From an uncultured Gammaproteobacteria bacterium (GTDB lineage: Bacteria; Patescibacteriota; Patescibacteriia; CAZBFB01), in the NCBI GenBank assembly GCA_964491085.1, contig CAZBFB010000046.1:1-63086 (forward strand): a DNA stretch of 63,086 nucleotides, written 5' to 3'. Both the position numbers and the translations under genes were made by a program. Under the pieces are notes generated by a model. The model searched no databases. It was not told where the DNA came from and saw nothing but the letters and a program-made list of their open reading frames with translations. Positions within the stretch are counted from its first letter, which is position 1, and each line of letters starts with the position of its first letter. Positions 1,328-63,005 of the stretch are shown here, piece by piece.

Positions 1328-2347
1328 ATGATTCTTGTTTCCGGATCTTTGGCGTATGATTTGATCATGGATTTCCCGGGGAAGTTTTCGGATCATATTA
1401 TGCCGGATAAAATTCACGCGTTGAACGTGAGTTTTTTTTTGGGCAGTCGTAGCCAAGAATTTGGCGGTACTGCTGGGAATATCGCGTATAATTTGGCGCT
1501 TTTAGGACTACAGCCGACAATTCTGGCATCGGTCGGAAATGATTTTGCCAAATACCGCGCGTGGCTGGAACAACACAACCTAGATTTGTCCCAGATAAAA
1601 ATAGTTGCCGAAGAACCCACCGCCGTAGCGCACATCATGACCGATCAGGCGGACAATCAAATCACCGGCTTTTATCCGGGCGCGATGTTGCAATCAGCCG
1701 CAACAAAACTCATCCCCCACCTTAATCCTCCCCCTTCTGCTGAAGAGGGAGGAAACAGAATTAATTTTCCTCCCTCTTGTACTCAAGGGGGAGGCCAGGT
1801 GGGGGATTTTGCTATCGTCTCTCCCGGTAACTTGGACGACATGCGGGCGTTGCCGAAATGGTATGCTGAAAAAAACATCCCCTATATTTACGATCCGGGG
1901 CAAGCAATTACCGGCTTGTCAGGGGAGGATTTGCAAGCGGGAATCAACGGCGCGAAATTTCTAATTTGCAATGATTACGAAGCCAGTTTGATTACCCACA
2001 AGACCGGATTGAAGCTTGAACATATCTTTGCTAAACTGTCTGCGATTATTATTACTCTAGGCGCTCTAGGTTCACGCTTGATTACCGTCTCGGGTGAAAT
2101 TTTAATCGCCCCGGCAAAGCCGAGTCAACTCGTTGATCCCACCGGCGCGGGTGATGCGTTCCGTGCGGGATTCATCCACGGTGTTTTACAAGGATGGTCA
2201 CTAAGTGATGCCTGTCGGTTAGGCGCAACCGTGGCGGTGTACACGGTAGAAAAACATGGCACACAAACGCACACTTTTACGCTTTCAGAATTACAAACAC
2301 GATATGAATTGAACTACGGTGTGAGAGTGGTGTCGGTGTTACTTTAA
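1328..2347 (+). CDS. PfkB-family carbohydrate/nucleoside kinase (adenosine-kinase-like) carrying an in-frame repeat insertion
   Basis: DPTGAGDAFRAGF signature near the C-terminus and an N-terminal GG motif region. Residues IPHLNPPPSAEEGGNRINFPPSCTQGGGQVGD are encoded by a repeat. Confidence 0.8.
   Translation: MILVSGSLAYDLIMDFPGKFSDHIMPDKIHALNVSFFLGSRSQEFGGTAGNIAYNLALLGLQPTILASVGNDFAKYRAWLEQHNLDLSQIKIVAEEPTAVAHIMTDQADNQITGFYPGAMLQSAATKLIPHLNPPPSAEEGGNRINFPPSCTQGGGQVGDFAIVSPGNLDDMRALPKWYAEKNIPYIYDPGQAITGLSGEDLQAGINGAKFLICNDYEASLITHKTGLKLEHIFAKLSAIIITLGALGSRLITVSGEILIAPAKPSQLVDPTGAGDAFRAGFIHGVLQGWSLSDACRLGATVAVYTVEKHGTQTHTFTLSELQTRYELNYGVRVVSVLL
1712..1807. repeat. Family-B palindromic repeat, head-to-head dimer (96 bp), inside the kinase CDS
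   Basis: atcccccacct..cctccccctt..aagagggaggaaa / spacer / ttttcctccctctt..aagggggagg..aggtgggggat. The length is 32 codons with no stop in the gene frame. Confidence 0.9.
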
Positions 2348-5153: not shown

Positions 5154-5263
5154 AAATCAGTAAATCCGGTAAATTAAGTAAATCCAGTGGCGGAAGGTTT
5201 GAAAAAAAACGATTGAGTATTTTAGAGGCTTGGTGTAAACCCGACTGTCATTTATATTTAATA

Positions 5264-5305
5264 TTTTCCTCCTCTTCAGCAGAAGGGGAGGGTTAGGGAG
5301 GGGAT
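5264..5305 (+). repeat. Family-B palindromic repeat, short form
   Basis: ttttcctcctcttcagcagaaggggagggttagggaggggat. Confidence 0.8.
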
Positions 5306-5318
5306 TGTGTTTGCAAAA

Positions 5319-5446
5319 ATCCCCCACCTAACCGTTCCGGGGCTTCGCGGTCTGCGACATCACCAAGCCCGTCTCGCGGTTCGCAGGCAAAGCAGTTTGC
5401 CTGCTTTCCACCGCTCGACCCCCTTGACTACAAGAGGGAGGAAAAA
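5319..5446 (-). repeat. Family-B repeat, long form, with an 86-nt internal core
   Basis: Its reverse complement matches 62816..62940. The internal core is identical by eye; only the B-type arms differ at a few positions. Confidence 0.9.
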
Positions 5447-46111: not shown

Positions 46112-46142
46112 CTGGATTCCGGATCAAGTCCGGAATGACAAA
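46112..46142 (-). repeat. Family-A hairpin repeat (tgtcattcc-stem-loop-stem-ggaatccag)
   Basis: ctggattccggatcaagtccggaatgacaa, 10 nt before the sufB start. Confidence 0.85.
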
Positions 46143-46151
46143 ATAATCTCT

Positions 46152-47549
46152 ATGAAAATCATGGCGCATCCTCAAGATAACAATGACACTAGTTTTTTCA
46201 TGCCGGAGCAGTTTGTGTTTAAGGCGAAAAAGGGCTTGACTGAAGACACGGTGCGGGAAATTTCCGCGCACAAGCACGAACCGGCCTGGATGTTGGAATT
46301 TCGTCTCCAGGCGTATCAAATATTTTTGCAAAAACCGCTGCCGCTGTGGGGTGGCGATTTGTCAAAAATTAATTTTGACGACATTTATTATTATCTCAAA
46401 CCAACCGATCAATCCGAAAAAAGTTGGGACGATGTGCCGCGAGATATCAAAACCACGTTTGATCGTTTGGGTATTCCCGAGGCGGAGAAAAAATTTCTCG
46501 CTGGTGTCGGCGCGCAATACGATTCGGGCACTATCTATCACAGCTTGCAGGAGCATTTGCAAAAACAGGGCGTGATTTTTTTAGACACGGACGCGGCTCT
46601 GCAACAATATCCGGAATTATTCAAGCAATATTTCGGCACCATCGTCCCCGCGGCGGACAATAAATTCGCCGCGCTCAATTCGGCGGTCTGGTCGGGCGGC
46701 AGTTTTTTGTATGTGCCCGCTGGTGTGCACATTGAGTTGCCGCTGCAAGCATACTTCCGTATCAACGCCGAAAAAATGGGGCAGTTCGAGCGCACGCTGA
46801 TCATCGCCGAAGAGGGTAGTTCGGTGCATTATTCCGAGGGATGCACGGCGCCGAAATATAGTGCCAGTTCACTGCACAGCGCGGTGGTTGAAATTATTGT
46901 CAAACGCGGCGCGCGGGTGCAGTACACTACCATTCAAAATTGGGCGAAGAATGTTTATAATTTAGTAACCAAACGAGCACGCGCGTATCAAGATGCCACT
47001 ATGCTTTGGCTGGACGGAAATTTAGGGAGTTGTGTGACGATGAAATACCCGAGCGTGTATTTAATGGAGCCGGGGGCGCGGGCGGAAATTTTGTCATTGG
47101 CGTTCGCGGGATCTGATCAACATCAAGATGCCGGTGGCAAAGTGATTCATGTGGCGCGCGACACCAGCTCGCGGATTATTTCCAAATCATTGAGCAAAGG
47201 CAACGGCCGCACGAGTTATCGCGGTTTGGTGCAGGTGCATCCGGGTGCGACGGGAGTGAAGTCGCATGTGGTTTGCGATGCTTTGTTGCTTGATGAAACA
47301 TCGCGTTCCGATACCTATCCCACCATGAAAATTTATGAACCGGACACCGCGATCGCACACGAAGCCAATGTGAGTAAGTTGAGCGCGGAGAAATTATTAT
47401 ATCTCAAGAGCCGCGGCTTGTCCGAGGCGGATGCGCGCGGATTACTCATCAATGGTTTTTTTGAACCGATCGTGAAAGAGTTACCCATGGAATACGCCGT
47501 CGAATTGAATCGCTTGATTGATATGGAAATGGAAGGAGCGGTGGGGTAA
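46152..47549 (+). CDS. sufB: Fe-S cluster assembly scaffold SufB
   Basis: [36 protein letters not shown] and the C-terminal EMEGAVG. Confidence 0.92.
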
Positions 47550-47558
47550 GGTAATAAT

Positions 47559-48202
47559 ATGCTCATCTCGGCTCACGAACACAAAATAATTATCCAACCC
47601 CAAGCCCTTGATGGTGAAATTGTGCTTGAAGCGGAGGCGGATCTCATGTATCTTTTTTTATCGGTGAAAATACGCCGGCTGACGCTTCACTGATTTGTCG
47701 GTTGAACGGTCGGGGTGCGCGGGCAAATATTTTTGGATTTGATTTGCGTGCCCAGGGAAGCCATCGTTTGAGTCTGCGCTTAGAGTATGGTGCGGAACAA
47801 ACCTGGGGTCATGTATGGCTCACGTCAGTGTTGAGCGGTTCGGCAAAAAGCAAAGTTGATGCCATGCTTAAGATGGAGCAAACCGCCACCGGCGCGGATG
47901 GTTATTTTGCGCATCATACCTTATTGATTCCGACAAATGAACAAGCTAAACCATCGAGTCATACCCGTCCGGCGTTGGAAATTTTAGCGCACGACATTCG
48001 CGCCGGGCATGCCGCCACTACCAGCTCCCTTGATCCGGCTATGCTACTCTATCTGGGCACGCGCGGCATTGCTTCGGTCAGCGCGCGCCGGTTGTTGGTG
48101 GAAGGATTTGTGGCTCGTGCCATCACCCGTATTCCCGATCCGACCGCCCGCCAAGCGTGTGAAAAAATAGTCGGTGAGACATTAATGTCATTCTGGACTT
48201 GA
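47559..48202 (+). CDS. sufD: SufD-like protein, reading frame interrupted (apparent -1 shift at a T7 run, 47653-47659)
   Basis: The ATG 47559 frame stops at 47691-47693. The frame carrying the SufD C-terminal homology (ALEILAHDIRAGHAATTSSLDPAMLLYLGTRGI) is open from 47630. The two overlap around ttttttt. Confidence 0.65.
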
Positions 48203-48265
48203 TCCAGAATCCAGTAAGTACGTTTAATTTAAAAAATTGGATTCCAGCTTTCGCTGGAATGACAA
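48186..48265. repeat. Pair of inverted family-A hairpin repeats forming an 80-bp MITE-like unit
   Basis: tgtcattctggacttgatccagaatccag ... ttggattccagctttcgctggaatgacaa. The left copy contains the sufD stop codon. Confidence 0.85.
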
Positions 48266-48285: not shown

Positions 48286-49488
48286 ATGTCTGATTTCAAA
48301 TCCCACTTCCCCATCTTCACGCATCACCCTGATCTCGTGTATCTCGACAGCGCCGCCACCACGCAAAAACCAGCGAGCGTGTTGGCCGCGATGCAGGATT
48401 TTTATGAGCACACGAATGCCAACATTTATCGTGGCCGGTATGATTTAAGTGAGATGGCCACAGCCCAGTATGAGGCCGGGCGCGATCAAGTTAAAAATTT
48501 TATCAACGCGCAGTGGCGTGAAGAAATTATTTTTACTCATGGTACGACCGAGGGGATTAATGCGGTGGCCTACACCTGGGGCGAACAGAATATAAAAACT
48601 GGCGATGAAATCGCGCTGACATACTTGGAGCACCATGCCAACATTGTGCCGTGGCTGGAGCTGGCCCGGCGGAAAGGCGCGGTGGTGAAAGCGATTGACA
48701 TTACGGATGATGGAAATATTGATCTGGTAAGTTTGACGCAGACAATCTCGGCCAAAACCAAACTGGTAGCCGTAACCCATGTGTCTAATGTGCTTGGAAC
48801 CATCGTGCCGTTGGAGCAAGTTATTGCCCAAGCCAAAGCGGTTGGGGCGCGCGTCTTGGTTGATGCGGCGCAGAGTATTGCTCACTTGCCGGTTGATGTG
48901 CAAAACATGGATTGTGACTGGTTGGTTTTTTCCGGACACAAAATGTATGGGCCCACCGGCGTGGGGGTGTTGTATGGTAAGCGTGAGGTGTTGGAGACGA
49001 TGTCGCCATTTTTGTTTGGCGGCGGTATGATTGATGAGGTTGATTTCCAGCGTGCGACCTGGGCGCCCATTCCGGAACGATTTGAGAGCGGCACGCCGCC
49101 GATTGCGGAAGTGATCGGTTTGAGTGCGGCGATTACCTGGCTGCAAACAATCGGCTGGCCGACGATTCAAGCGCATGAGCAAGTACTGTCAACCCGGGCG
49201 CGATCAGCGCTGCGCGCACTAGCGGGTGTAGAAATACAAGGCAACAATGATGCGAACGCCAGCGGAGTAATTTCGTTTATTATGCCGGGGATTCATCCGC
49301 ATGATATTGCCAGTATTGCCAACGAATTCGGGGTGGCCGTGCGGGCTGATCATCATTGTGCTCAACCATTATTGAAACGGCTTGGTGTCTCGGCCATCAC
49401 CCGCGCCAGTATTGGAATCTATAATGAGTCAAATGATATCGATCGGCTCATTGCGGCGCTGGCGCACGCGCGTAAAATTTTTCATTAA
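48286..49488 (+). CDS. sufS: Cysteine desulfurase SufS (class II aminotransferase V)
   Basis: YLDSAATTQKP, FSGHKMYGPTGVG (PLP Lys), RADHHCAQP (active-site Cys). Confidence 0.92.
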   Translation: MSDFKSHFPIFTHHPDLVYLDSAATTQKPASVLAAMQDFYEHTNANIYRGRYDLSEMATAQYEAGRDQVKNFINAQWREEIIFTHGTTEGINAVAYTWGEQNIKTGDEIALTYLEHHANIVPWLELARRKGAVVKAIDITDDGNIDLVSLTQTISAKTKLVAVTHVSNVLGTIVPLEQVIAQAKAVGARVLVDAAQSIAHLPVDVQNMDCDWLVFSGHKMYGPTGVGVLYGKREVLETMSPFLFGGGMIDEVDFQRATWAPIPERFESGTPPIAEVIGLSAAITWLQTIGWPTIQAHEQVLSTRARSALRALAGVEIQGNNDANASGVISFIMPGIHPHDIASIANEFGVAVRADHHCAQPLLKRLGVSAITRASIGIYNESNDIDRLIAALAHARKIFH

Positions 49489-49498
49489 AAACAATTTA

Positions 49499-49715
49499 TG
49501 TCATTCCGGACTCGATCCGGAATCCAGACCCCCCAGCTTAATAATTTCCACTACCCAATTTCCAACAAAATGTCCAATGCTTAATGCCAAATTTCATTTT
49601 GTAATTATCTGCCTGAGGCGGATCCGCCGCGGGCGGAGAAATTTCATTGGAAATTGGATATTGGAAATTAAACCCGTGGATTAATCTGGATCCCAAATCT
49701 AGTTTGGGATGACAA
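49499..49715. repeat. Nested composite: inverted family-A hairpins (49499-49527, 49686-49715) enclosing a family-C element (49543-49669)
   Basis: tgtcattccggactcgatccggaatccag ... [aatttcca...ccaatttcc... gcctgaggcggatccgccgcgggcggag ...ggaaattgg...ggaaatt] ... ctggatcccaaatctagtttgggatgacaa. Confidence 0.8.
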
Positions 49716-53151: not shown

Positions 53152-53194
53152 TTTTTCTCCCTCTTGTAATCAAGGGCGAGGTGAGATGGGGGAT
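53152..53194 (+). repeat. Family-B palindromic repeat, short form
   Basis: tttttctccctcttgtaatcaagggcgaggtgagatgggggat, directly upstream of leuS. Confidence 0.8.
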
Positions 53195-53208
53195 AGTTAA
53201 AGTTGAGT

Positions 53209-55644
53209 ATGAAATCATATAACCACAAAACAATCGAACCAAAATGGCAAAAACGCTGGGACGAAGCGCAGATTTTTGCCGCTAAAAATTTTGATTCACG
53301 GCCTAAATTTTATGGCTTGATCGAATTTCCGTATCCGTCCGGCGAAGGACTGCATGTGGGGCATCCGCGTTCCTATACAGCCATGGATATTATCGCACGC
53401 CAGCGCCGTATGGCCGGAAATAATGTTTTATATCCAATCGGTTTTGACTCATTCGGCTTGCCCACCGAAAACTATGCCATAAAAACCGGTCGTCCGCCGG
53501 CCGAGATTACGCGAGAGAATATTGCTAACTTTACGCGCCAGTTGAAAAGTATCGGATTTAGTTTTGATTGGTCGCGGGTAGTAATTACGAGTGAGCCAGA
53601 ATATTACCAGTGGACCCAATGGATTTTTTTGCAGTTGTTCAAGCATGGTTTGGCGTATAAAAAGAAACAACCGATTAACTGGTGCTCGTCTTGTAAGATT
53701 GGCTTGGCGAACGAAGAGGTGGTTGATGGTAAATGCGAGCGTTGCGGTACACCGGTGGAACAACGCAATAAAGAACAATGGATGTTGGCAATTACCAAAT
53801 ATGCTGATAAATTATTGGCTGGTTTGGATACGGTTGATTATATTGAGCGCGCCAAAGTCCAGCAACAGAATTGGATCGGCCGAAGCGAAGGCGCGGAAAT
53901 TGAATTTTTGCTTATCGCTCGCGGACCAACGCGGACTGGTACGCGGACCAACGCAGACCAATTTCTGCGTAAGTCAGCGTCAAGTCAGCGTGAGTCTGCG
54001 ACTTTGACTTCAGTCAAAGTATTCACGACGCGACCGGATACATTGTTTGGCGTGACGTATTTGGTATTGGCGCCGGAACATGAATTGATTGCACAACTAC
54101 AAGCGCAAATTTCAAACTGGCCGGAAGTTCAAAACTATATTGAGCAAGTAACAAAGAAATCCGAGCAAGAACGCATGGCCGAAGATCGGCAAAAAACCGG
54201 TATGGAATTAAAAGGAATTATGGCTATCAATCCGGCCAATAACGAAGAAATTCCGGTGTGGGTCGCTGATTATGTATTGGCCAGTTATGGGACCGGCGCG
54301 ATTATGGCCGTACCGCAACATGATGCCCGCGATCGCGAATTCGCGGAAAAATTTAATTTACCGATTGTTGACCGACCGTTAGTTTCGAGTGATGAGATTA
54401 TTCATAAAGTCGGCGGCACAAAAACCGTTAAGTATAAACTTCGCGACTGGGTTTTTTCGCGCCAGCGCTATTGGGGCGAGCCGATTCCGCTGGTTTTTTG
54501 TGAGAGCTGTAAAGATTGGATTCCTTTGCCGGAGGATCAATTGCCGTTGGTATTGCCGGCGGTGGAAAAATATCAGCCCACGGATACGGGTGAATCACCG
54601 TTGGCGGCTATGACGGATTGGGTGAACACAACCTGTCCTCGTTGTAACGGGCCAGCCCGACGCGAAACCGACACCATGCCTAACTGGGCGGGTTCAAGTT
54701 GGTATTACCTTGCATACACCATGCAAGGAATTTCCAATTTCCCCGCTTCGACTCGTCGAAGGCGAGGCGAGCAATTTCCAATTTCTAACTATAAGGAAAT
54801 ATTTAAGTATTGGCTGCCCGTTGATTGGTACAACGGTGGTATGGAGCACACGACGTTGCATTTACTGTATTCTCGTTTTTGGAATGAGTTTTTGTTTGAC
54901 ATCGGCGTAGTGCCGGTATTCGAGCCGTACGCCAAGCGTACTTCGCACGGTATGATTTTGGCGGAGAATGGTGAAAAAATGTCCAAGTCGCGAGGCAATG
55001 TGGTAAATCCTGACACGGTGGTCAAAGAGTTGGGTGCGGACACTTTGCGCGTCTATGAAATGTTTATGGGTCCGTTTGCCGATGCCGTTCCGTGGAGCAC
55101 CAAAGGCATAATTGGCTTGCGCCGCTTTTTGGAACGCGTCTGGCGATTGGGTGCTGTTGTCATTCCCGCGGAGGCGGGAATCCAGGCGGATGATTTTTTG
55201 TTGCATCAAACCATAAAAAAAGTCAGCGCGGATATCGAGGCCATGAAATTCAACACAGCGATTTCCCAGATGATGATTTTGGTGAATGCCTGGACGAAAG
55301 ACGGCGTGTCGTCACGCCCTGCCTGGCTTGATTTTTTAAAATTATTAGCCCCGTTCGCGCCGCACCTGGCGGAAGAATTATGGGAACAAGCCGGTGAGAC
55401 GGGATTTATTTCGCTGGCCGCATGGCCAAAGTATGATCCGGCCAGAATTATCACGGAAACGGTTACGCTCGTGGTGCAGGTGAACGGTAAAGTCAGAGCC
55501 ACCATCATCGTACCGACCGATGTCCCGGAAACGGAATTGATCGCCCGCGCCCGCGCCGAAAAAAATGTTCAGCAGTGGTTGGCAGAACTTGAGCCAAAGA
55601 AAACCGTCGTGATCAAAGGCCGCCTGATAAATTTTGTCGTTTAA
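53209..55644 (+). CDS. leuS: Leucyl-tRNA synthetase (with three in-frame repeat-derived segments)
   Basis: KWQKRW, PYPSGEGLHVGH (HIGH), VFTTRPDTLFGVTY, and KMSKSRGN (KMSKS). The start is taken at ATG 53209. Confidence 0.95.
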   Translation: MKSYNHKTIEPKWQKRWDEAQIFAAKNFDSRPKFYGLIEFPYPSGEGLHVGHPRSYTAMDIIARQRRMAGNNVLYPIGFDSFGLPTENYAIKTGRPPAEITRENIANFTRQLKSIGFSFDWSRVVITSEPEYYQWTQWIFLQLFKHGLAYKKKQPINWCSSCKIGLANEEVVDGKCERCGTPVEQRNKEQWMLAITKYADKLLAGLDTVDYIERAKVQQQNWIGRSEGAEIEFLLIARGPTRTGTRTNADQFLRKSASSQRESATLTSVKVFTTRPDTLFGVTYLVLAPEHELIAQLQAQISNWPEVQNYIEQVTKKSEQERMAEDRQKTGMELKGIMAINPANNEEIPVWVADYVLASYGTGAIMAVPQHDARDREFAEKFNLPIVDRPLVSSDEIIHKVGGTKTVKYKLRDWVFSRQRYWGEPIPLVFCESCKDWIPLPEDQLPLVLPAVEKYQPTDTGESPLAAMTDWVNTTCPRCNGPARRETDTMPNWAGSSWYYLAYTMQGISNFPASTRRRRGEQFPISNYKEIFKYWLPVDWYNGGMEHTTLHLLYSRFWNEFLFDIGVVPVFEPYAKRTSHGMILAENGEKMSKSRGNVVNPDTVVKELGADTLRVYEMFMGPFADAVPWSTKGIIGLRRFLERVWRLGAVVIPAEAGIQADDFLLHQTIKKVSADIEAMKFNTAISQMMILVNAWTKDGVSSRPAWLDFLKLLAPFAPHLAEELWEQAGETGFISLAAWPKYDPARIITETVTLVVQVNGKVRATIIVPTDVPETELIARARAEKNVQQWLAELEPKKTVVIKGRLINFVV
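53917..54000. repeat. Family-E palindromic dimer (84 bp, 28 codons) inside leuS
   Basis: It encodes ARGPTRTGTRTNADQFLRKSASSQRESA between GAEIEF and VFTTRPDT. The same units occur in intergenic DNA. Confidence 0.75.
54729..54785. repeat. Family-C-related element (57 bp, 19 codons) inside leuS
   Basis: aatttccaatttc direct termini flank the palindrome cgcttcgactcgtcgaaggcg. It shares aatttcca/ccaatttcc with 49543-49669. Confidence 0.65.
55158..55185 (+). repeat. Family-A hairpin repeat inside leuS (encodes VIPAEAGIQ)
   Basis: tgtcattcccgcggaggcgggaatccag. It has the same termini as the intergenic copies at 46.1, 48.2 and 49.5 kb. Confidence 0.85.
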
Positions 55645-55683: not shown

Positions 55684-56571
55684 ATGAATTTACGAAACGA
55701 TATCCAATCGCGTGCCCGAATTGCCGGCTTGACCCCTAATAAACTAAAAGGTCAGCATTTTTTGGTTGACGAACGAATACGAGACCGGGTATTAGCGGCC
55801 GCCATCCCCCACCTAACCTCCCCCTTGAGTACAAGAGGGAGGAAAGAATTAATTTTTCCTCCCTCTTCTCGAGAAGGGGGAGGCCAGGTGGGGGATGTCC
55901 TCGAAATCGGTCCCGGGCTTGGCGTTTTGACGGATGAATTAGTAAAACACGCTCGGCAGGTTGACGCCGTCGATATTGACGAGCAGGAAGTCATGTTTTT
56001 GCGCAAGCGTTATGTTGATAACAAAAATATCACCATTCATCATCAAGACGCCCTCGACTATGCGCCACTCGCCACCGGCTATTCGCTCATATCCAATTTG
56101 CCATACGAAATCACCACGCCGTTTTTGTGGCGCTATCTTTTGGAACTGCCGCTCAATCAGCGCCCGCAACAATTAGTGCTTCTGATTCAAAAAGAAGTGG
56201 CTGATCGCATACTGCAGAACAAGCCGCCGTTTAATCCGTTGGCGTTATTGGTACAATGGTTCGGCGAGGCCAAGCGCGTAATGAATGTTTCGCGTCACGC
56301 CTTTTGGCCCGAGCCGCGCGTTGAGGGAGCGGTGATAAAAATTACTCGTCAGGCCGATCTGGCGGATCCGGGCAAACTATTTGCATTAATCCGCGCCGGT
56401 TTTTCTCACCCCCGCCGTCAACTGGCAGTCAACCTCCGCGCCGCCGGCTACGCTCCCGCTGATATTACCCCTGCCCTCACCAACATCAACCTTCCCACTC
56501 TCGTCCGCGCCGAAGCGCTCGATCTGCCCGCCTGGCAGGCGTTTTCCCACAGTTTACCCGGACGCTCTTGA
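55684..56571 (+). CDS. rsmA: 16S rRNA (adenine1518/1519-N6)-dimethyltransferase RsmA/KsgA carrying an in-frame repeat insertion
   Basis: KGQHFLVD, VLEIGPGLGVLT (SAM motif I), ISNLPYEITTP. 31 extra residues lie between the first two motifs. Confidence 0.88.
   Translation: MNLRNDIQSRARIAGLTPNKLKGQHFLVDERIRDRVLAAAIPHLTSPLSTRGRKELIFPPSSREGGGQVGDVLEIGPGLGVLTDELVKHARQVDAVDIDEQEVMFLRKRYVDNKNITIHHQDALDYAPLATGYSLISNLPYEITTPFLWRYLLELPLNQRPQQLVLLIQKEVADRILQNKPPFNPLALLVQWFGEAKRVMNVSRHAFWPEPRVEGAVIKITRQADLADPGKLFALIRAGFSHPRRQLAVNLRAAGYAPADITPALTNINLPTLVRAEALDLPAWQAFSHSLPGRS
55804..55896. repeat. Family-B palindromic repeat, head-to-head dimer (93 bp) inside rsmA
   Basis: atcccccacctaacctcccccttgagtacaagagggaggaaa / gaattaa / tttttcctccctcttctcgagaagggggaggccaggtgggggat. 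The length is 31 codons. Confidence 0.9.
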
Positions 56572-56596
56572 TAGTGTGTAAACTCTGTGCTAGAGT
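56568..56596 (+). promoter_or_regulatory. Putative promoter: TTGATA, 17-nt spacer, TGc-TAGAGT, at the rsmA stop codon and positioned for a leaderless uvrA transcript
   Basis: Extended -10 ending 7 nt before the ATG at 56604; no SD. Confidence 0.5.
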
Positions 56597-56603
56597 GGAC
56601 GGC

Positions 56604-59420
56604 ATGACTTTGCGTAAAGAGGCCACCACCCTTTCCGTGCGCGGGGCGCGGGTGCATAATTTAAAAAATATTTCGCTTGACCTGCCTAAGGGCAAGTTAA
56701 TCGTGTTCACCGGTTTGTCCGGTTCGGGAAAATCCAGTTTGGCGTTTGATACGATTTATGCCGAAGGTCAGCGGCGTTATGTTGAATCACTGTCGGCGTA
56801 CGCGCGGCAGTTTTTAGGTTTGGCGGACAAACCCGATGTTGATCAAATTGACGGCCTGTCGCCTACGATTGCCATTAACCAAAAAGCCCTATCCGCCAAT
56901 CCGCGTTCCACCGTCGGCACCATTACGGAAATTTACGATTATTTGCGTTTGCTCTATGCGCGGATTGGCCAACCGCACTGTCCCCAGTGCGGCCAGCCGG
57001 TCGTTAAGCAAACCATTGATCAAATCGTTAAGCGAGTATTCGCTGGCGCGAGCGGTAAAGAAGTAATTATTTTGGCGCCGATGGTCCGTAGTCAAAAAGG
57101 CGAACATAAAAAAGTGCTGGAAGTAACCCAGCGCGTCGGTTATGTGCGGGTGCGCATTGATGGCGACATCATGACGCTGGAAGAAGCGCGCGGCCTAACG
57201 CTTGATAAGCAAAAAAAACATTCCGTTGATATTGTGGTGGATCGATTAGAAGCGAGTGCGGGCGAACGCACGCGCCTCACCGAATCATTGGAAGCGGCGC
57301 TGGATTTGGGTAATGGTTTGGTCATGGTGGCGCGCGCTGGCGCGGATGATATGATTTTTTCTCAACACTTTGCTTGTCCCGAGTGCCAAGTGGATTTACC
57401 AGAGCTGTCACCGCGCAGTTTTTCATTCAACTCACCCTATGGCGCTTGTCCGGTTTGTACTGGCTTGGGCACTAAACTCGAAGTTGATCCGGCGCTGATC
57501 GTGCCCAATCGGCGTTTAACCTTGGCCGAGGGCGCTGTTCGTCCTTGGAGTCGTTCGCTGGCGACCGCTGGTTGGCAAATGGACGCGCTGGAGCGCATGG
57601 CGCGAGCGGAGCACATTCCGCTCGATGTGCCCTGGCAAAAATTAACCAAGGCCCAACAAGACGCCGTCCTGTCGGGCACTGGTATCACGGCGGGTATCGA
57701 GTTTGAAGGCGTGATCCCAAATCTTGCCCGGCGCTGGAAAGAAACTGAATCAGATTACACCCGTTCGGAAATTGAAAAGTACATGCGTATTCAAGAGTGT
57801 CCGAGTTGTCGCGGTAAGCGTTTACAGCCAGTGGTGTTGGGCGTTATGGTGGGCGGAAAAAATATTACCGCGGTAACCGCGCTCACGGTGCGCGACAGTC
57901 GCCAGTTTTTTAATGACTTGGCCAAACCAACCTCCACCCTCACTAAACGCGAGCGGGAAATAGCGCGACAAATTTTAAAAGAAATTTCTGCTCGTTTAAC
58001 ATTTTTAGAAAATGTCGGCTTGGCCTATTTGACCGTTGATCGTTCGGCCGCCACGTTATCCGGCGGCGAAGCGCAACGCATCCGCTTAGCCACGCAGATC
58101 GGCTCGGCCTTGACCGGCGTGTTGTATGTGCTGGACGAACCGACGATTGGCTTGCACCAACGGGATAACGCCAAACTGATTGTTACGCTGAAAGAATTGC
58201 GCGACCTTGGCAATACGGTGATCGTAGTAGAGCACGACGAAGAAATGATCGGGACAGCGGATCATGTAGTAGATATTGGTCCGGGCGCAGGCGAGCACGG
58301 CGGAGCTATTGTGGCACAGGGCACGCCAGCCGAAATCAAGCGCAATCCCAAATCTATTACCGGCCGTTATTTGTCCGGCAAAGATTCTGTGCCCATACCC
58401 GAGAGTCGCCGTTTGGGCAGTGGTAAAAATTTAGTGGTCAAGGGCGCCAGCGAACATAATTTGCGTAATTTGGAGGTCGCCATTCCGCTCGGTACATTTA
58501 CCTGTTTGACCGGTGTGTCCGGGTCTGGCAAATCAACCTTAATGATAGATATTATTGCCAAGGCCTTAACGCATACATTTTATCAATCGCGCGCTTTACC
58601 GGGCAAACATAAATCCATTAATGGTATTGAACACATCAACAAAGTAATTCACATTGATCAATCACCAATCGGTCGTACTCCGCGTTCCAATCCGGCGACG
58701 TATACGGGAATTTTTACCGGTATTCGTGATTTGTTCACGCAAGTGCCCGAAGCAAAAATTCGCGGCTATAAAGCCGGGCGGTTTTCTTTCAATGTTAAAG
58801 GCGGGCGGTGTGAGGCCTGCGCCGGTGATGGTTTGGTGCGCATTGAAATGCAATTTTTGCCAGATGTGTACGTTGAATGTGAAGTGTGCCGGGGTCAACG
58901 TTATAACAAAGAGGCGCTCGAAATTCATTATCGCGGTAAAAATATTGCGGAAGTGTTGAACCTGACCGTGGAAGACGGTTGTGATTTTTTTGCCAAGATT
59001 CCGGCGCTCTACGATAAGCTGGCCGTGTTGGCCGAGGTTGGTTTGGGTTATATGAAACTTGGGCAATCTGCCACTACCTTATCCGGCGGTGAAGCTCAAC
59101 GCATAAAGTTGGCGACGGAATTATCGCGCCGAGCGACTGGTCGGACGATGTATTTGCTTGATGAACCAACCACTGGTTTGCATTTTGCCGATGTGCGGCG
59201 CTTGCTGGGTGTTTTGCAAAAATTAGTGGACAAGGGCAACACGGTGCTCGTGATTGAGCATAATCTGGATGTGATTAAGTGCGCTGATTGGTTGATTGAT
59301 TTGGGTCCAGAGGGAGGAGAGGATGGCGGTCAAATTATGGCCGAAGGCACACCCGAACAAGTGGCGCGCGTTACAAAAAGTTACACCGGGCAGTATCTCA
59401 AAGCGATTCTGAAAAAATAA
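56604..59420 (+). CDS. uvrA: Excinuclease ABC subunit A
   Basis: RGARVHNLKNISLDLPKGKLIVFTGLSGSGKSSLAFDTIYAEGQRRY, zinc-finger Cys pairs, and two ABC signatures (LSGGEAQR x2). Confidence 0.95.
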   Translation: MTLRKEATTLSVRGARVHNLKNISLDLPKGKLIVFTGLSGSGKSSLAFDTIYAEGQRRYVESLSAYARQFLGLADKPDVDQIDGLSPTIAINQKALSANPRSTVGTITEIYDYLRLLYARIGQPHCPQCGQPVVKQTIDQIVKRVFAGASGKEVIILAPMVRSQKGEHKKVLEVTQRVGYVRVRIDGDIMTLEEARGLTLDKQKKHSVDIVVDRLEASAGERTRLTESLEAALDLGNGLVMVARAGADDMIFSQHFACPECQVDLPELSPRSFSFNSPYGACPVCTGLGTKLEVDPALIVPNRRLTLAEGAVRPWSRSLATAGWQMDALERMARAEHIPLDVPWQKLTKAQQDAVLSGTGITAGIEFEGVIPNLARRWKETESDYTRSEIEKYMRIQECPSCRGKRLQPVVLGVMVGGKNITAVTALTVRDSRQFFNDLAKPTSTLTKREREIARQILKEISARLTFLENVGLAYLTVDRSAATLSGGEAQRIRLATQIGSALTGVLYVLDEPTIGLHQRDNAKLIVTLKELRDLGNTVIVVEHDEEMIGTADHVVDIGPGAGEHGGAIVAQGTPAEIKRNPKSITGRYLSGKDSVPIPESRRLGSGKNLVVKGASEHNLRNLEVAIPLGTFTCLTGVSGSGKSTLMIDIIAKALTHTFYQSRALPGKHKSINGIEHINKVIHIDQSPIGRTPRSNPATYTGIFTGIRDLFTQVPEAKIRGYKAGRFSFNVKGGRCEACAGDGLVRIEMQFLPDVYVECEVCRGQRYNKEALEIHYRGKNIAEVLNLTVEDGCDFFAKIPALYDKLAVLAEVGLGYMKLGQSATTLSGGEAQRIKLATELSRRATGRTMYLLDEPTTGLHFADVRRLLGVLQKLVDKGNTVLVIEHNLDVIKCADWLIDLGPEGGEDGGQIMAEGTPEQVARVTKSYTGQYLKAILKK

Positions 59421-59508
59421 GCGGAGCGTTGTATCCAGCTATCTGTCCGCCGGTCGGCTTGGCCGTTTTTTGTTTGGCAGGGGTGTCGGCGCGTGCTATG
59501 CTATAATC

Positions 59509-60465
59509 ATGAAACACCCGGTTGATCAGGCCATAATTCGCACGATTGTGTGGTTTGATTTGTTTGATTTCCCGCTTTTGCCGCTGGAAGTCGGCCGATT
59601 GTTATATGGCGGCCCGGCGCATGTTACCAGCGAACAGGTGTTTACACGGCTGGAGCAGAGTCCCTATCTCCAGCGCCATTTGGAAACGACAGACGGATTT
59701 TATCATCGGCGCGGTCGGGGGAGCATTGTGGCCATCCGTAATCAGCGTTACGCCACCACCAAGCGGCATCGCGAGCAGTGGCGTTTTCGGTTAGCGCTTA
59801 ATCTGTTGCGTTGCGCGCCATTTGTGCGATTTGTGGCTCTAGGTAATTCCGCGGCCTATGGCAACGCGCGCGCTTCGAGCGATCTTGATTTATTTATTGT
59901 TGTGCAAGACGGCTCGCTCTACACCGCGCGTTGGTTTATTACCGCGCTCTTTCAGGCGATCGGTATTCGTCGTCATGATCGGCGAGTGGCTGGTCGCGCG
60001 TGCTTGTCATTTTATGTCACTGAAACCGGTGCGGCTTTGTCGCCGTTATTATTGCCCGGCCAAGATCCATATTTTACCTTTTGGGCTGGTTTGCTGTGGC
60101 CATTATTTGACGCTGGCGGTCAAGCCCAGGTCAAGCGTTTAAACAATTGGCTGGGTGCGATTTTTCCGACCGAGCTGTTTGTGTGGTCATGGTCACCTGA
60201 TTTATTGACGGACTCGCGCGTTTCGCGTTTTATTCGTACTAGTTTGGAATATATTTTATCAGCTCCGCGCGCGCATACCTGGCTCGAGCGAATCAGCGAA
60301 CGCGTTCAGCAGTGGAAAATGAAACGTCATCCGTGCGCGCGGGCGCGCCAGCCGAATGCGTCGGTGGTGATATCATCAACCGTGTTGAAATTTCACGAAG
60401 ACGACCGCCGCCATGAACTCCGCCGTCGTTTTTTCTCCCAACTCCGCCGCTACGGCGCGGTGTGA
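59509..60465 (+). CDS. Hypothetical protein with a nucleotidyltransferase-fold-like motif
   Basis: GNSAAYGNARASSDLDLFIV resembles the G[SG]-x9-13-DxD NTase signature. The start is uncertain: TTG 59470, ATG 59509 or a downstream GTG. A TGcTATAAT extended -10 sits at 59499-59507. Confidence 0.5.
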   Translation: MKHPVDQAIIRTIVWFDLFDFPLLPLEVGRLLYGGPAHVTSEQVFTRLEQSPYLQRHLETTDGFYHRRGRGSIVAIRNQRYATTKRHREQWRFRLALNLLRCAPFVRFVALGNSAAYGNARASSDLDLFIVVQDGSLYTARWFITALFQAIGIRRHDRRVAGRACLSFYVTETGAALSPLLLPGQDPYFTFWAGLLWPLFDAGGQAQVKRLNNWLGAIFPTELFVWSWSPDLLTDSRVSRFIRTSLEYILSAPRAHTWLERISERVQQWKMKRHPCARARQPNASVVISSTVLKFHEDDRRHELRRRFFSQLRRYGAV

Positions 60466-60478
60466 TCAAATAGTAACA

Positions 60479-60533
60479 CGTAATCCGTCCGCCTCGGATC
60501 GACCGAGTCGAGACGGGTAACTCGTAACTGGTA
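60479..60533 (+). repeat. Family-F repeat, copy 1
   Basis: cgtaatccgtccgcctcggatcgaccgagtcgagacgggtaa (42 nt) is the perfect reverse complement of 62964..63005. Confidence 0.9.
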
Positions 60534-60550
60534 CAATAGCAACATTCATT

Positions 60551-60596
60551 TTTTCCTCCCTCTTCACCAGAAGGGGGAGGATTTAAGGTGGGGGAT
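60551..60596 (+). repeat. Family-B palindromic repeat, short form
   Basis: ttttcctccctcttcaccagaagggggaggatttaaggtgggggat. Confidence 0.85.
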
Positions 60597-60600
60597 TTTT

Positions 60601-62786: not shown

Positions 62787-62815
62787 TTATTCTTCGAGTA
62801 GTGTTGAGAAATTTG

Positions 62816-62940
62816 TTTCCTCCCTCTTGTAATCAGGGGGTCGAGCGGTGGAAAGCAGGCAAACTGCTTTGCCTGCGAACCGCGAGACGGGCTTGGTGAT
62901 GTCGCAGACCGCGAAGCCCCGGGACGGTGAGGTGGGGGAC
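62816..62940 (+). repeat. Family-B repeat, long form, with an 86-nt core (mate of 5319..5446)
   Basis: tttcctccctcttgtaatcaggggg-[core]-gtgaggtgggggac. The core is the reverse complement of 5334-5419. Confidence 0.9.
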
Positions 62941-62943
62941 AAT

Positions 62944-63005
62944 TACGAGTTACCAGTTACAGTTTACCCGTCTCGACTCGGTCGATCCGAGGCGGACGGA
63001 TTACG
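62944..63005 (-). repeat. Family-F repeat, copy 2 (inverted relative to 60479..60533)
   Basis: The last 42 nt (62964-63005) are the perfect reverse complement of 60479-60520. Confidence 0.9.

Follow-up and report, generated by a model that had tools for sequence, protein, structure and literature searches.

What is a 93-bp palindrome doing inside the reading frame of rsmA/ksgA, and what has it made of the gene and its product? The gene lies in a window of 63,086 nucleotides, the whole stretch of DNA analyzed here. An earlier sequence-only reading had taken the palindrome for a head-to-head dimer of a dispersed repeat, carried by an essential gene in an apparently CPR-like genome. The lineage fits, as the best LeuRS matches (55-61% identity) belong to Magasanikbacteria, Uhrbacteria, and Patescibacteria, and the dimer is borne out by its arms, its fold energy, and nhmmer. 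The word "essential" has to be given up: rsmA/ksgA is conserved but not essential, since E. coli knockouts of the gene are viable. It is among the ribosome-biogenesis genes that are only partly kept in CPR, and many CPR dispense with it (PMC12641178). The palindrome is very probably a non-autonomous REP/REPIN- or MITE-like element whose survival requires a tolerant loop and an unbroken reading frame.

The repeat dimer in rsmA and the protein that carries it

The host gene and the parts of the dimer are as follows.

55684..56571, forward strand: rsmA/ksgA, intact ORF of 295 aa hosting the repeat dimer (PF00398 RrnaAD, E = 3.6e-36)
55804..55896, forward strand: head-to-head repeat dimer of 93 bp, codons 41-71 of rsmA (IPHLTSPLSTRGRKELIFPPSSREGGGQVGD)
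55803..55845, reverse strand: left arm, a reversed monomer, ATCCCCCACC-TAA-CCTCCCCCTT-GAGTAC-AAGAGGGAGGAAA (nhmmer E = 2.5e-14; inverted-repeat arm)
55855..55897, forward strand: right arm, a forward monomer with the linker CCAGG (Gln68) (nhmmer E = 7.9e-13; monomer alignment)

The two arms, of 43 nt each, are 84% complementary and are separated by a spacer of 9 nt. Folded as RNA, the dimer reaches -72.1 kcal/mol (z = -9.4; 0/200 shuffles were equally stable), and as DNA -39.6 kcal/mol (z = -8.6); it is also the stablest 100-nt fold of the whole window, at -71.3 kcal/mol (mean -22.8, sd 6.3). Its 31 codons contain no stop in the gene frame and are located between the motifs GQHFLVD and VLEIGPGLG.

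The span from G23 to G80 comprises 58 residues in the window RsmA, as against 34 in 108/118 homologues and 33 in 7/118. The insert is absent from all 118 homologues compared and specific to the window RsmA among them, in line with the insertion that had been supposed. About 7 native linker residues have given way to the 31-aa element, which makes the net gain 24 aa rather than 31; this gain equals the difference between the linker lengths of 46 and 22 residues given by the sequence-only reading. The insertion event itself is deduced from distant homologues: the closest RsmA homologue is only 41% identical, and no near relative offers an empty site.

The product has the RrnaAD fold and carries both SAM motif I (GxGxG) and NLPY, along with the C-terminal domain that binds rRNA. 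In the 119-sequence alignment it retains 13/13 invariant columns, including E74, G76, G78, G80, D99, and P140, and Foldseek aligned its model to T. thermophilus KsgA with TM 0.86-0.89 (0.89 to 3fut). The AF2 model (mean pLDDT 92.6, and >95 outside the insert) predicts a normal KsgA fold, from which the insert is extruded as a low-confidence loop just before Rossmann strand beta-1, next to which a surface loop had been envisaged; pLDDT is 50-70 over the insert and <50 at residues 59-66. Judging from this model, the dimer most likely adds a floppy 24-residue surface loop to RsmA. Tryptic peptides predicted from the insert include ELIFPPSSR and EGGGQVGDVLEIGPGLGVLTDELVK. The score against the TIGR00755 ksgA profile is 162 bits with a cutoff of 171; because it falls just under this cutoff, and because rsmA is dispensable in many CPR, retained RsmA activity is not guaranteed.

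The repeat family in the window and in other genes

The family unit, about 45 nt long, consists of a T-run, a 10-bp hairpin CCTCCCTCTT/AAGGGGGAGG, a linker of 3-6 nt, and the tail GGTGGGGGAT; a T·G mismatch in the hairpin is conserved and the loop is variable. The dimers (93-96 bp) are two such units placed head-to-head across a common asymmetric spacer, ATTAATTTT. There are 7 elements in the window, made up of 9 monomer units. Five are intergenic (hairpin of 26 nt plus tail), three of them intact and two interrupted; blastn and nhmmer recovered copies at all the places where the sequence-only reading had put them, at 5.3, 53.15, 60.55, and 62.8 kb. The elements outside rsmA, with the gene that hosts the second dimer, are listed below.

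1328..2347, forward strand: PfkB-family kinase gene hosting the second dimer, 339 aa (PF00294, E = 6.4e-43)
1712..1807, forward strand: dimer of 96 bp, codons 129-160 of the PfkB-family gene (IPHLNPPPSAEEGGNRINFPPSCTQGGGQVGD) (blastn, nhmmer)
5263..5306, forward strand: intergenic monomer with one base missing from each stem arm (nhmmer E = 3.9e-9)
5319..5445, reverse strand: intergenic monomer with a nested insert of about 80 nt (96.8% identity over 125 nt to 62816-62939)
53152..53195, forward strand: intergenic monomer 14 nt upstream of the leuS ATG (nhmmer E = 1e-11)
60551..60597, forward strand: intergenic monomer upstream of groES-groEL (nhmmer E = 2.1e-12)
62815..62939, forward strand: intergenic monomer with a nested insert, downstream of the groEL terminator (blastn, nhmmer)

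The dimer at 1712-1807 had gone unmentioned in the earlier reading, and the rsmA case is not unique. A 38-nt half-element probe found this second copy at 1767-1804, against 0 expected by chance. The PF00294 match of the kinase is split into two stretches, and its residues 125-160 (36 aa) align to 11 aa of PDB 3b1n. As RNA, this dimer folds at -64.2 kcal/mol (z = -8.0). Its terminal codon phase and its right linker CCAGG are identical to those of the rsmA dimer, and the two differ in length by indels of 2 nt and 1 nt, 3 in total.

A full HMMER scan of the dimer peptide against 1.84 billion representatives matched only RsmA and an IleRS-like protein, P0243, and this related IleRS holds two in-frame dimers. 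Single units are found in frame in other MAGs, in ddl (Ddl), miaB (MiaB-like), comEC, and rluD-type genes. The in-frame dimers, 4 in three genes, all have lengths that are multiples of 3 and are stop-free in one phase; the codon phase (A)TC-CCC-CAC-CT is used by all dimers and by 3/4 of the in-frame monomers. The consensus right linker of the family, TTAGG/CTAGG, would yield an in-frame TAG, and the dimers of rsmA and the PfkB-family gene have CCAGG instead. We dropped the rule that every insert takes the place of 7 native residues: rsmA and apparently the PfkB-family gene follow it, but IleRS site 2 gains about 20 residues for a 31-aa insert. A word-indexed protein search, for which the 31-aa peptide is too short, gave 13 word-sharing candidates and none that scored when the peptide was padded to 41-42 aa, an uninformative outcome, and exact-product look-ups for RsmA and P0243 returned no records.

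The monomer does not act as a terminator, as its T-run precedes the hairpin and the A's follow on the other strand, and a role as ribosome-binding site is unconvincing given the 14-nt spacing to the leuS ATG. Neither Rfam, used with gathering thresholds, nor a tRNA scan gave a match in the window, and the repeat corresponds to no known RNA family. A scan of viral contigs for the monomer gave 0 matches, and when metagenome contigs were scanned for the centre of the dimer (AAGAGGGAGGAAA-N5-14-TTTCCTCCCTCTT), the 17 loci returned included no further dimer, all of them being unrelated GC-rich simple hairpins without the family flanks.

Assembly support was obtained for part of the rsmA locus. An independent Logan contig, L034 (run ERR4904393), contains the right arm joined to rsmA at 99.9% identity, and nearly the whole dimer of the PfkB-family gene with its junction is reproduced at 100% in contig L035 (run ERR3478687). 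No independent assembly yielded the left junction of the rsmA dimer; the upstream contig (L036) ends at another palindrome. Logan assemblies break at intergenic monomers, as is expected of true repeats; contig L033 breaks exactly at the monomer at 60551-60597.

Known palindromic elements and competing explanations

The Rickettsia palindromic elements RPE-1 to RPE-10 (Ogata et al. 2000 Science 290:347; reviewed in PMC10969869) were the comparison drawn by the sequence-only reading, and in behavior it stands. Like the RPEs, the element is a dispersed palindromic repeat that occurs in intergenic DNA as well as within the frames of unrelated housekeeping genes; it is always read so as to yield an open peptide of about 30-50 aa at a site that the host fold can accommodate, and its host is a host-dependent bacterium with a small genome. 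In contrast to the RPEs, which measure about 100-150 bp, it measures 93-96 bp, is a head-to-head dimer of a 45-nt hairpin unit, and occurs in the phylum Patescibacteria. The resemblance does not extend to peptide sequence: the element peptides have no NCBIfam match at E <= 1 and no Pfam match at E <= 10, and the CGTC at one end of R. conorii RPE sequences (Di Nocera 2013, PMC3733652) is not present in the element, which ends in a T-run and GGTGGGGGAT.

REP families usually differ between species, whereas the monomer found here is nearly identical in several distant MAGs. The element nevertheless resembles REP/BIME/REPIN sequences (Bertels & Rainey 2011, PMC3116915; Di Nocera et al. 2013, PMC3733652): its monomers are imperfect hairpins of about 20-45 nt that lie mainly between genes or downstream of them, its inverted doublets fold into one long hairpin and behave as a replicating unit, and its copies are clustered and nested. 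The two 43-nt inverted units with a spacer of 9-10 nt make up a REPIN-type arrangement. Intragenic in-frame REP dimers encoding 20-30 aa, to which the dimers described here correspond, are known well beyond Rickettsia (Di Nocera 2013, PMC3733652). Unlike REPs, no aligned copy carries a GTAG or CGTC tag, and the conserved GGTGGGGGAT tail takes its place. No RAYT/TIRYT or other transposase was present among about 28 individually scanned window ORFs, and a batch scan of 87 further window ORFs showed no transposase among the best 25 of 102 families.

With the bacterial MITEs that form in-frame fusions (ERIC/RU, BOX, Anabaena MITEs, QMITE1; PMC10969869, PMC2759123), the element shares its small size, a non-coding and non-autonomous nature, terminal inverted repeats, and an occasional intragenic location with an open frame; it is unlike them in that inverted repeat makes up essentially the whole element, leaving no internal region. 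Its flanks, GCGGCCGCC|...|GTCCTCGAA and CAAAACTC|...|TTTGCTATC, have no common direct repeat that would indicate a target-site duplication, and no related full-length IS that could be the parent was found in the 63-kb window. The terminal AT...AT is ambiguous, being indistinguishable from part of the inverted repeat. In the literature searched, no paper links CPR/Patescibacteria with intragenic repeats of the MITE, REP, or RPE type.

Could the element instead have been exapted, its hairpin or peptide having gained a role? The proposed roles are a translational pause or attenuator, an RNase III target tuning rsmA expression, a new protein interaction loop, and internal Shine-Dalgarno-like GGGGGAGG sites. 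The mRNA stem is indeed very stable (about 40 bp, -72 kcal/mol), two SD-like G-runs are present with an in-frame GTG at codon 69, 4 nt past GGAGG, every dimer uses the same codon phase and peptide, and the monomer sequence is conserved across distant MAGs. However, the host genes (rsmA, pfkB-family, ileS, ddl, miaB, comEC, rluD) are unrelated, which makes a protein function common to them all hard to sustain; the predicted peptide structure is disordered, the phase bias could equally well come from selection against stops, and there is nothing to tie the copies to regulation. We consider exaptation unlikely. It is very unlikely that the insertion has inactivated or crippled rsmA and that the gene is heading for loss, as in many CPR lineages. 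Partial conservation of rsmA in CPR (PMC12641178), the sub-cutoff TIGR00755 score, and the missing 7-residue native linker speak for such decay, but the ORF is complete, its invariant columns and motifs are intact, the AF2 model is confident outside the insert, a specific variant in the insert avoids the stop, and the same element sits in ileS, a gene that cannot be lost.

Two further explanations would keep the 31 residues out of the mature protein or out of the genome. Removal before the protein is made or mature, through RNA-level hairpin excision or an intein-like event, finds some favor in the perfect stem that joins both ends of the insert and in the insertions for which CPR rRNA genes are known. 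With excision, length and stops would be irrelevant, yet the four dimers are stop-free multiples of 3 in one phase and the TAG-avoiding CCAGG is carried by dimers; the linker would also end up 7 residues short, Rfam gives no match, and intein or intron features are lacking. This explanation is highly improbable. Mis-assembly of a repeat into rsmA is scarcely credible: although repeats break k-mer assemblies here and the left rsmA junction lacks independent recovery, the right monomer with rsmA and the dimer of the PfkB-family gene were recovered from other runs, the flanks are the two halves of one rsmA, ordered and in frame, removal of the element does not restore a normal linker, and all four dimers, in three genes, are in frame.

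A probable selfish element tolerated in loops and its meaning for CPR

We regard the REP/REPIN- or MITE-like element as the functional equivalent of the Rickettsia RPEs and of the REP dimers that Di Nocera 2013 describes inside genes. The dimer would spread as one unit, as a REPIN or an all-TIR MITE does, and copies would land genome-wide, where most intragenic insertions would be lethal or purged; the survivors would be those that keep the frame, are stop-free, and lie in a tolerant surface linker. In rsmA, the dimer would have replaced the 7-residue linker between the helix after GQHFL and Rossmann strand beta-1 and would be transcribed and translated along with the gene, giving a probably disordered loop, rich in Gly, Pro, Ser, and Arg, at the N-terminal end of beta-1. 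The enzyme would stay functional because this end lies opposite the SAM-binding and catalytic edge of the sheet. We infer that the segment is translated, that enzyme activity is retained, and that a transposase mobilizes the element in trans, the most plausible candidate being an HUH/IS200-like enzyme that recognizes the hairpin plus tail.

The finding adds CPR, another host-dependent bacterial group with tiny genomes, to Rickettsia and the few other bacteria known to carry selfish DNA within protein-coding genes. It supports the view that purifying selection, being weak in such lineages, allows palindromic repeats to stay in the frames of core genes. Such inserts depress family-model scores, as with the window RsmA just below the ksgA cutoff, break short-read assemblies inside genes, and can be misread in CPR proteins as functional loops specific to a lineage. 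The CCAGG variant, which avoids the stop, and the unchanging codon phase offer a clean handle for measuring selection on the elements.

A wider reading, that in-frame palindromic repeats in core genes are a general and previously undescribed trait of Patescibacteria/CPR and that the 45-nt unit has also spread horizontally, is put forward tentatively, as a possibility with the odds somewhat against it. Repeats may be a recurrent source of loop expansions in CPR translation proteins, and several repeat families may have used the same tolerant loops in different lineages. The 45-nt unit may be spreading horizontally between distant lineages with a dedicated putative mobilizing enzyme, and MAGs labelled Gammaproteobacteria may be among its recipients. 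Should this label hold and these organisms be hosts of CPR cells, the element could mark DNA exchange between host and episymbiont.

The rsmA dimer and its repeat family

The 93-bp segment at 55804-55896 (ATCCCCCACCTAACCTCCCCCTTGAGTACAAGAGGGAGGAAAGAATTAATTTTTCCTCCCTCTTCTCGAGAAGGGGGAGGCCAGGTGGGGGAT) occupies exactly codons 41-71 of rsmA/ksgA, is stop-free and lies between the GQHFLVD and VLEIGPGLG motifs, in agreement with every factual statement of the sequence-only reading (a dimer, 31 codons, no stop, and this position). Its two 43-nt arms (55803-55845 and 55855-55897) are 84% complementary across a 9-nt spacer, and each contains its own 10-13-bp hairpin. The predicted RNA fold reaches -72.1 kcal/mol (z = -9.4; 0 of 200 shuffles as stable) and the DNA fold -39.6 kcal/mol (z = -8.6), while a sliding 100-nt scan ranked the dimer as the most stable structure of the 63 kb (-71.3 versus a mean of -22.8, sd 6.3). 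The dimer also creates an in-frame GTG (codon 69, 55888-55890), 4 nt past AAGGGGGAGG, which is a possible internal start that would give an N-truncated RsmA lacking the GQHFL motif.

The same reading had described the repeat as dispersed, and further copies were indeed found. With 38 nt of the left half as a probe, one more copy was detected at 1767-1804 (2 mismatches; 0 copies expected), and blastn together with an nhmmer profile defined a unit of ~45 nt, composed of a T-run, a stem, a 3-6-nt linker and the tail GGTGGGGGAT. In the stem (CCTCCCTCTT / AAGGGGGAGG) a T·G mismatch is conserved, and the loop varies from 4 to 8 nt. Nine units are present in the window, as two dimers, three intact intergenic monomers and two split monomers.

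Host gene of the rsmA dimer and other family members in the window
55684-56571 (+), rsmA/ksgA ORF, 295 aa; PF00398 at 3.6e-36, best NCBIfam match TIGR00755
1712-1807, second dimer, codons 129-160 of a PfkB-family kinase gene (ORF 1328-2347)
5263-5306, intact intergenic monomer (blastn/nhmmer)
53152-53195, intact intergenic monomer (blastn/nhmmer)
60551-60597, intact intergenic monomer (blastn/nhmmer)
5319-5445 (-), monomer split by a nested ~80-nt insert
62815-62939 (+), monomer split by a nested ~80-nt insert

In both split monomers the nested insert separates the 3' arm of the hairpin from the tail. The two copies share 96.8% identity over 125 nt, so the monomer-plus-insert composite was itself copied. 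Only two of the seven elements are genic, though most of the window is coding DNA, and this scarcity fits the purging of most genic insertions.

In-frame carriage in unrelated genes

The pfkB dimer, which was absent from the sequence-only reading, encodes IPHLNPPPSAEEGGNRINFPPSCTQGGGQVGD. The match to the kinase domain (PF00294, 6.4e-43) is split in two, and 36 residues stand at the insert versus 11 in the closest solved structure, 3b1n. Its terminal codon phase and CCAGG linker are those of the rsmA dimer.

Several features mark selection for an open frame. Four of six frames are open in the rsmA dimer and three of six in the pfkB dimer, so openness is not automatic. The family consensus of the linker is GTTAGG or GCTAGG (nhmmer alignment), which in the right arm and in the phase used would read GGT-TAG, a stop; in both in-frame window dimers the right-arm linker is GCCAGG, whereas the left arms retain TTA or TAA, harmless in that orientation. 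Thus, the main break in palindromy is precisely what an open reading frame requires. The two dimers differ by one 2-nt and one 1-nt indel, which shift the frame of the left hairpin (TSPLSTRGRK versus NPPPSAEEGGN); the frame is regained before FPPS, so the lengths of 93 and 96 nt remain multiples of three.

A profile of the two peptides was run in an index-free HMMER scan against 1.84 billion representative proteins, and only RsmA and P0243 matched at E <= 0.001. P0243 is a 997-aa IleRS-type synthetase encoded on a different NCBI contig (17,056 bp), probably from the same genome or a sister genome. It carries two dimer peptides, PPHLTSPRVQREETLINFPPSSREGGGQVGD near residue 241 in the editing-domain region, and, near residue 697 ahead of the anticodon-binding domain, the PPHLTSPRVQREETLINFPPSSREGGGQVGD peptide in which K replaces T. 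Gln stands at the linker position (GGGQVGD) in all four dimers.

When one genome per GTDB species was scanned with the exact pattern, the monomer turned up at 14 loci, spread over five MAGs (Portnoybacteria, Patescibacteria-group, Saccharibacteria and two labelled Gammaproteobacteria), and at four of these loci it lies in frame within a recognisable gene. The phase (A)TC-CCC-CAC-CT is shared by 4/4 dimers and three of these four monomers.

In-frame monomers in other genomes
Ddl gene, peptide IPHLTSPLEYQEGG
MiaB-like gene (L001 2867-4381, Portnoybacteria contig JACQXN010000005.1), peptide NPPPHPSPFAKEGG
ComEC gene, peptide IPHLTSPLVQEGG
RluD-type pseudouridine synthase gene, peptide IPHLTSPLPGKREE

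The MiaB-like gene contains at least two more repeat-like segments, e.g., SLRGVSRSEDPSLYSGQAPQSRCIQLSSDEIAALPHPATRDSVARNDK and GGLRWGAEKATPPPTPSSTEEGR. Ten of the 14 loci (L002-L004, L006, L007, L009, L010 and L012-L014) belong to the two "uncultured Gammaproteobacteria" MAGs, CAZFZQ01 and CAZHTB01; either this label is wrong, or the element occurs across phylum boundaries. One of their monomer contigs encodes an AcrB-type transporter, and on another a DnaK scores just ~790 bits against E. coli DnaK.

Consequences for RsmA and alternative explanations

The insert is specific to this RsmA, in line with the lineage-specific insertion that the sequence-only reading had anticipated. Linker length is nearly constant elsewhere: the G23-G80 span measures 34 residues in 108 of 118 homologues and 33 in seven (single cases have 21, 35 and 41), versus 58 in the window RsmA. 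The net gain is 24 residues; therefore, the 31-aa element replaces ~7 native linker residues, and the ends of its peptide, IPH and QVGD, fill alignment columns of the native linker. Among 5.8 billion proteins searched, the nearest RsmA shares just 41% identity in a MAFFT alignment (36-39% by the search itself), so no empty-site relative is available. In the AlphaFold2 model (mean pLDDT 92.6; TM 0.86-0.89 on T. thermophilus KsgA), the insert has low confidence (pLDDT 50-70, and <50 at residues 59-66), while the remainder exceeds 93. It exits helix 30-40 and returns at strand 72-75, consistent with the expected loop beside beta-1. In Rossmann folds, the strands bind ligands at their C-terminal ends; the insert lies at the opposite, N-terminal end of beta-1, which would therefore face away from SAM and the catalytic site.

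In the alignment of 119 sequences, the window RsmA keeps every one of the 13 invariant columns, including E74, G76, G78 and G80 of motif I, D99, and P140 of NLPY. We infer that the insert is translated and that RsmA activity is retained, and we give little weight to decay of the gene. Removal of the segment after transcription is also improbable, as it fits poorly with the constraints on frame and stops. That the dimer has been exapted as a regulatory hairpin or a new protein loop is similarly a minor candidate.

An assembly artefact is unlikely too. The Logan assemblies of single public runs are independent of the MAG. Contig L034 (ERR4904393; window 55854-60508, 99.89% identity) begins exactly at the right monomer, with CCAGG present, joined to GTCCTCGAAATCGG, the continuation of rsmA. 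Contig L035 (ERR3478687; 1726-5424, 100%) covers the pfkB dimer from its left hairpin through the spacer and right monomer to the junction, and contig L033 (60552-62864) ends at the monomers flanking groES-groEL. Therefore, the repeats are real, they break k-mer assemblies, and gene-repeat junctions are reproducible. For the rsmA dimer, the right junction was thus reproduced, while the left was not retrieved from these assemblies. A mis-join is unlikely because the flanks together make up one rsmA, its halves being in order and in frame, and because deleting the element would leave an abnormal linker.

Other palindromes, origin and relation to known elements

Further palindromes and repeats in the window
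53919-54001, imperfect 83-nt palindrome in frame in leuS (ORF 53203-55644, residues ~237-270)
60479-60533 and 62951-63005, inverted pair of a third, 55-nt palindromic repeat, 94.5% identity
46012-46060, 46112-46158, 48186-48214 and 49479-49527, palindrome and short repeat family at gene boundaries of the suf (Fe-S assembly) cluster

The leuS palindrome (-47.1 kcal/mol, z = -5.3) is a different one, with no second copy in the window. Its peptide is LIARGPTRTGTRTNADQFLRKSASSQRESATLTS; compared with T. thermophilus LeuRS, the protein gains 27 aa where the chain enters the editing domain. At this loop, LeuRS proteins of other CPR have different inserts, also derived from repeats (type VIASEAKQS...IASS..PRND). 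The LeuRS gene of the Patescibacteria MAG GCA_004321885.1 has two in-frame 78-81-bp palindromes (L032 10700-10780 and 12005-12081, contig SCQK01000007.1; 97% identical, GTCATTGCGA...TCGCAATGAC) encoding VIA[NS]E[VA]KQSQTKKGIATSPSAPRNDS, one of them at the loop of the window leuS insert. These observations suggest that core genes of CPR may often carry palindromes in frame. Partial copies of the GCA_004321885.1 palindrome occur in the adjacent comEC gene. The window leuS also has an extra stretch at 54736-54789 (NFPASTRRRRGEQFPISN), its core STRRRRGEQ being found in at most 3 of 20 CPR LeuRS homologues, and a small hairpin at 55159-55185 (GTCATTCCCGCGGAGGCGGGAATCCAG) that encodes VIPAEAGIQ and presumably resembles a common REP-like hairpin motif.

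Each 55-nt repeat adjoins a monomer, and the pair brackets groES-groEL, around which independent assemblies end at these points. The suf-cluster palindrome (-53 kcal/mol) is the third most stable in the window. A SufD-like ORF (47702-48202, 166 aa), 3' of sufB after a 150-nt gap, may be disrupted or truncated; its match to the SUFBD core is confined to the C-terminal half of the core (profile positions 101-232). Between the epimerase and pfkB genes, at 1222-1325, there is an AT-rich pair of 31-nt inverted repeats; Logan contig L036 ends within this palindrome, ~32 nt beyond the epimerase gene.

The family has the anatomy of REP-type repeats and the inverted doublets that these form (REPINs), or else of a MITE consisting entirely of inverted repeat. 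The monomer combines a hairpin of conserved irregularity with a conserved single-stranded tail, the common asymmetric spacer of the inverted doublets implies a shared dimer ancestor, copies are nested, clustered and mostly intergenic, and no target-site duplication was found at them. The most economical mechanism would have four steps: mobilisation in trans, possibly by a candidate HUH/IS200-like enzyme reading hairpin-plus-tail substrates; unselective landing; purging of genic copies unless in frame, stop-free and within tolerant linkers; and translation of the survivors as flexible Gly/Pro/Ser/Arg-rich loops. No RAYT was seen in the 63 kb searched, among about 28 ORFs scanned one by one and the top 25 of 102 families from a batch scan of 87 more.

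The RPE phenomenon was reportedly described by Ogata in 2000. The likeness to RPEs proposed from the sequence was right in substance; the window element behaves like RPEs (review PMC10969869) and like the phenomenon of Di Nocera et al. 2013 (PMC3733652). By membership it qualifies neither as an RPE nor as a tagged REP: the RPE-like peptide domain was not found in it, and it has neither a GTAG nor a CGTC tag. The best LeuRS matches are all CPR (55-61% identity), so the host genome is Patescibacteria/CPR, and our literature search found no paper tying CPR to such intragenic repeats. E. coli ksgA knockouts are viable. Across CPR, rsmA is only partly retained (PMC12641178), so "essential" was too strong a word for this gene. 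The element constitutes a new repeat family, found in a new phylum, with the behaviour of known intragenic REP/RPE elements. Its significance would grow if a genome-wide survey showed the phenomenon to be pervasive in CPR, or if the near-identical monomer truly moves between distant lineages.
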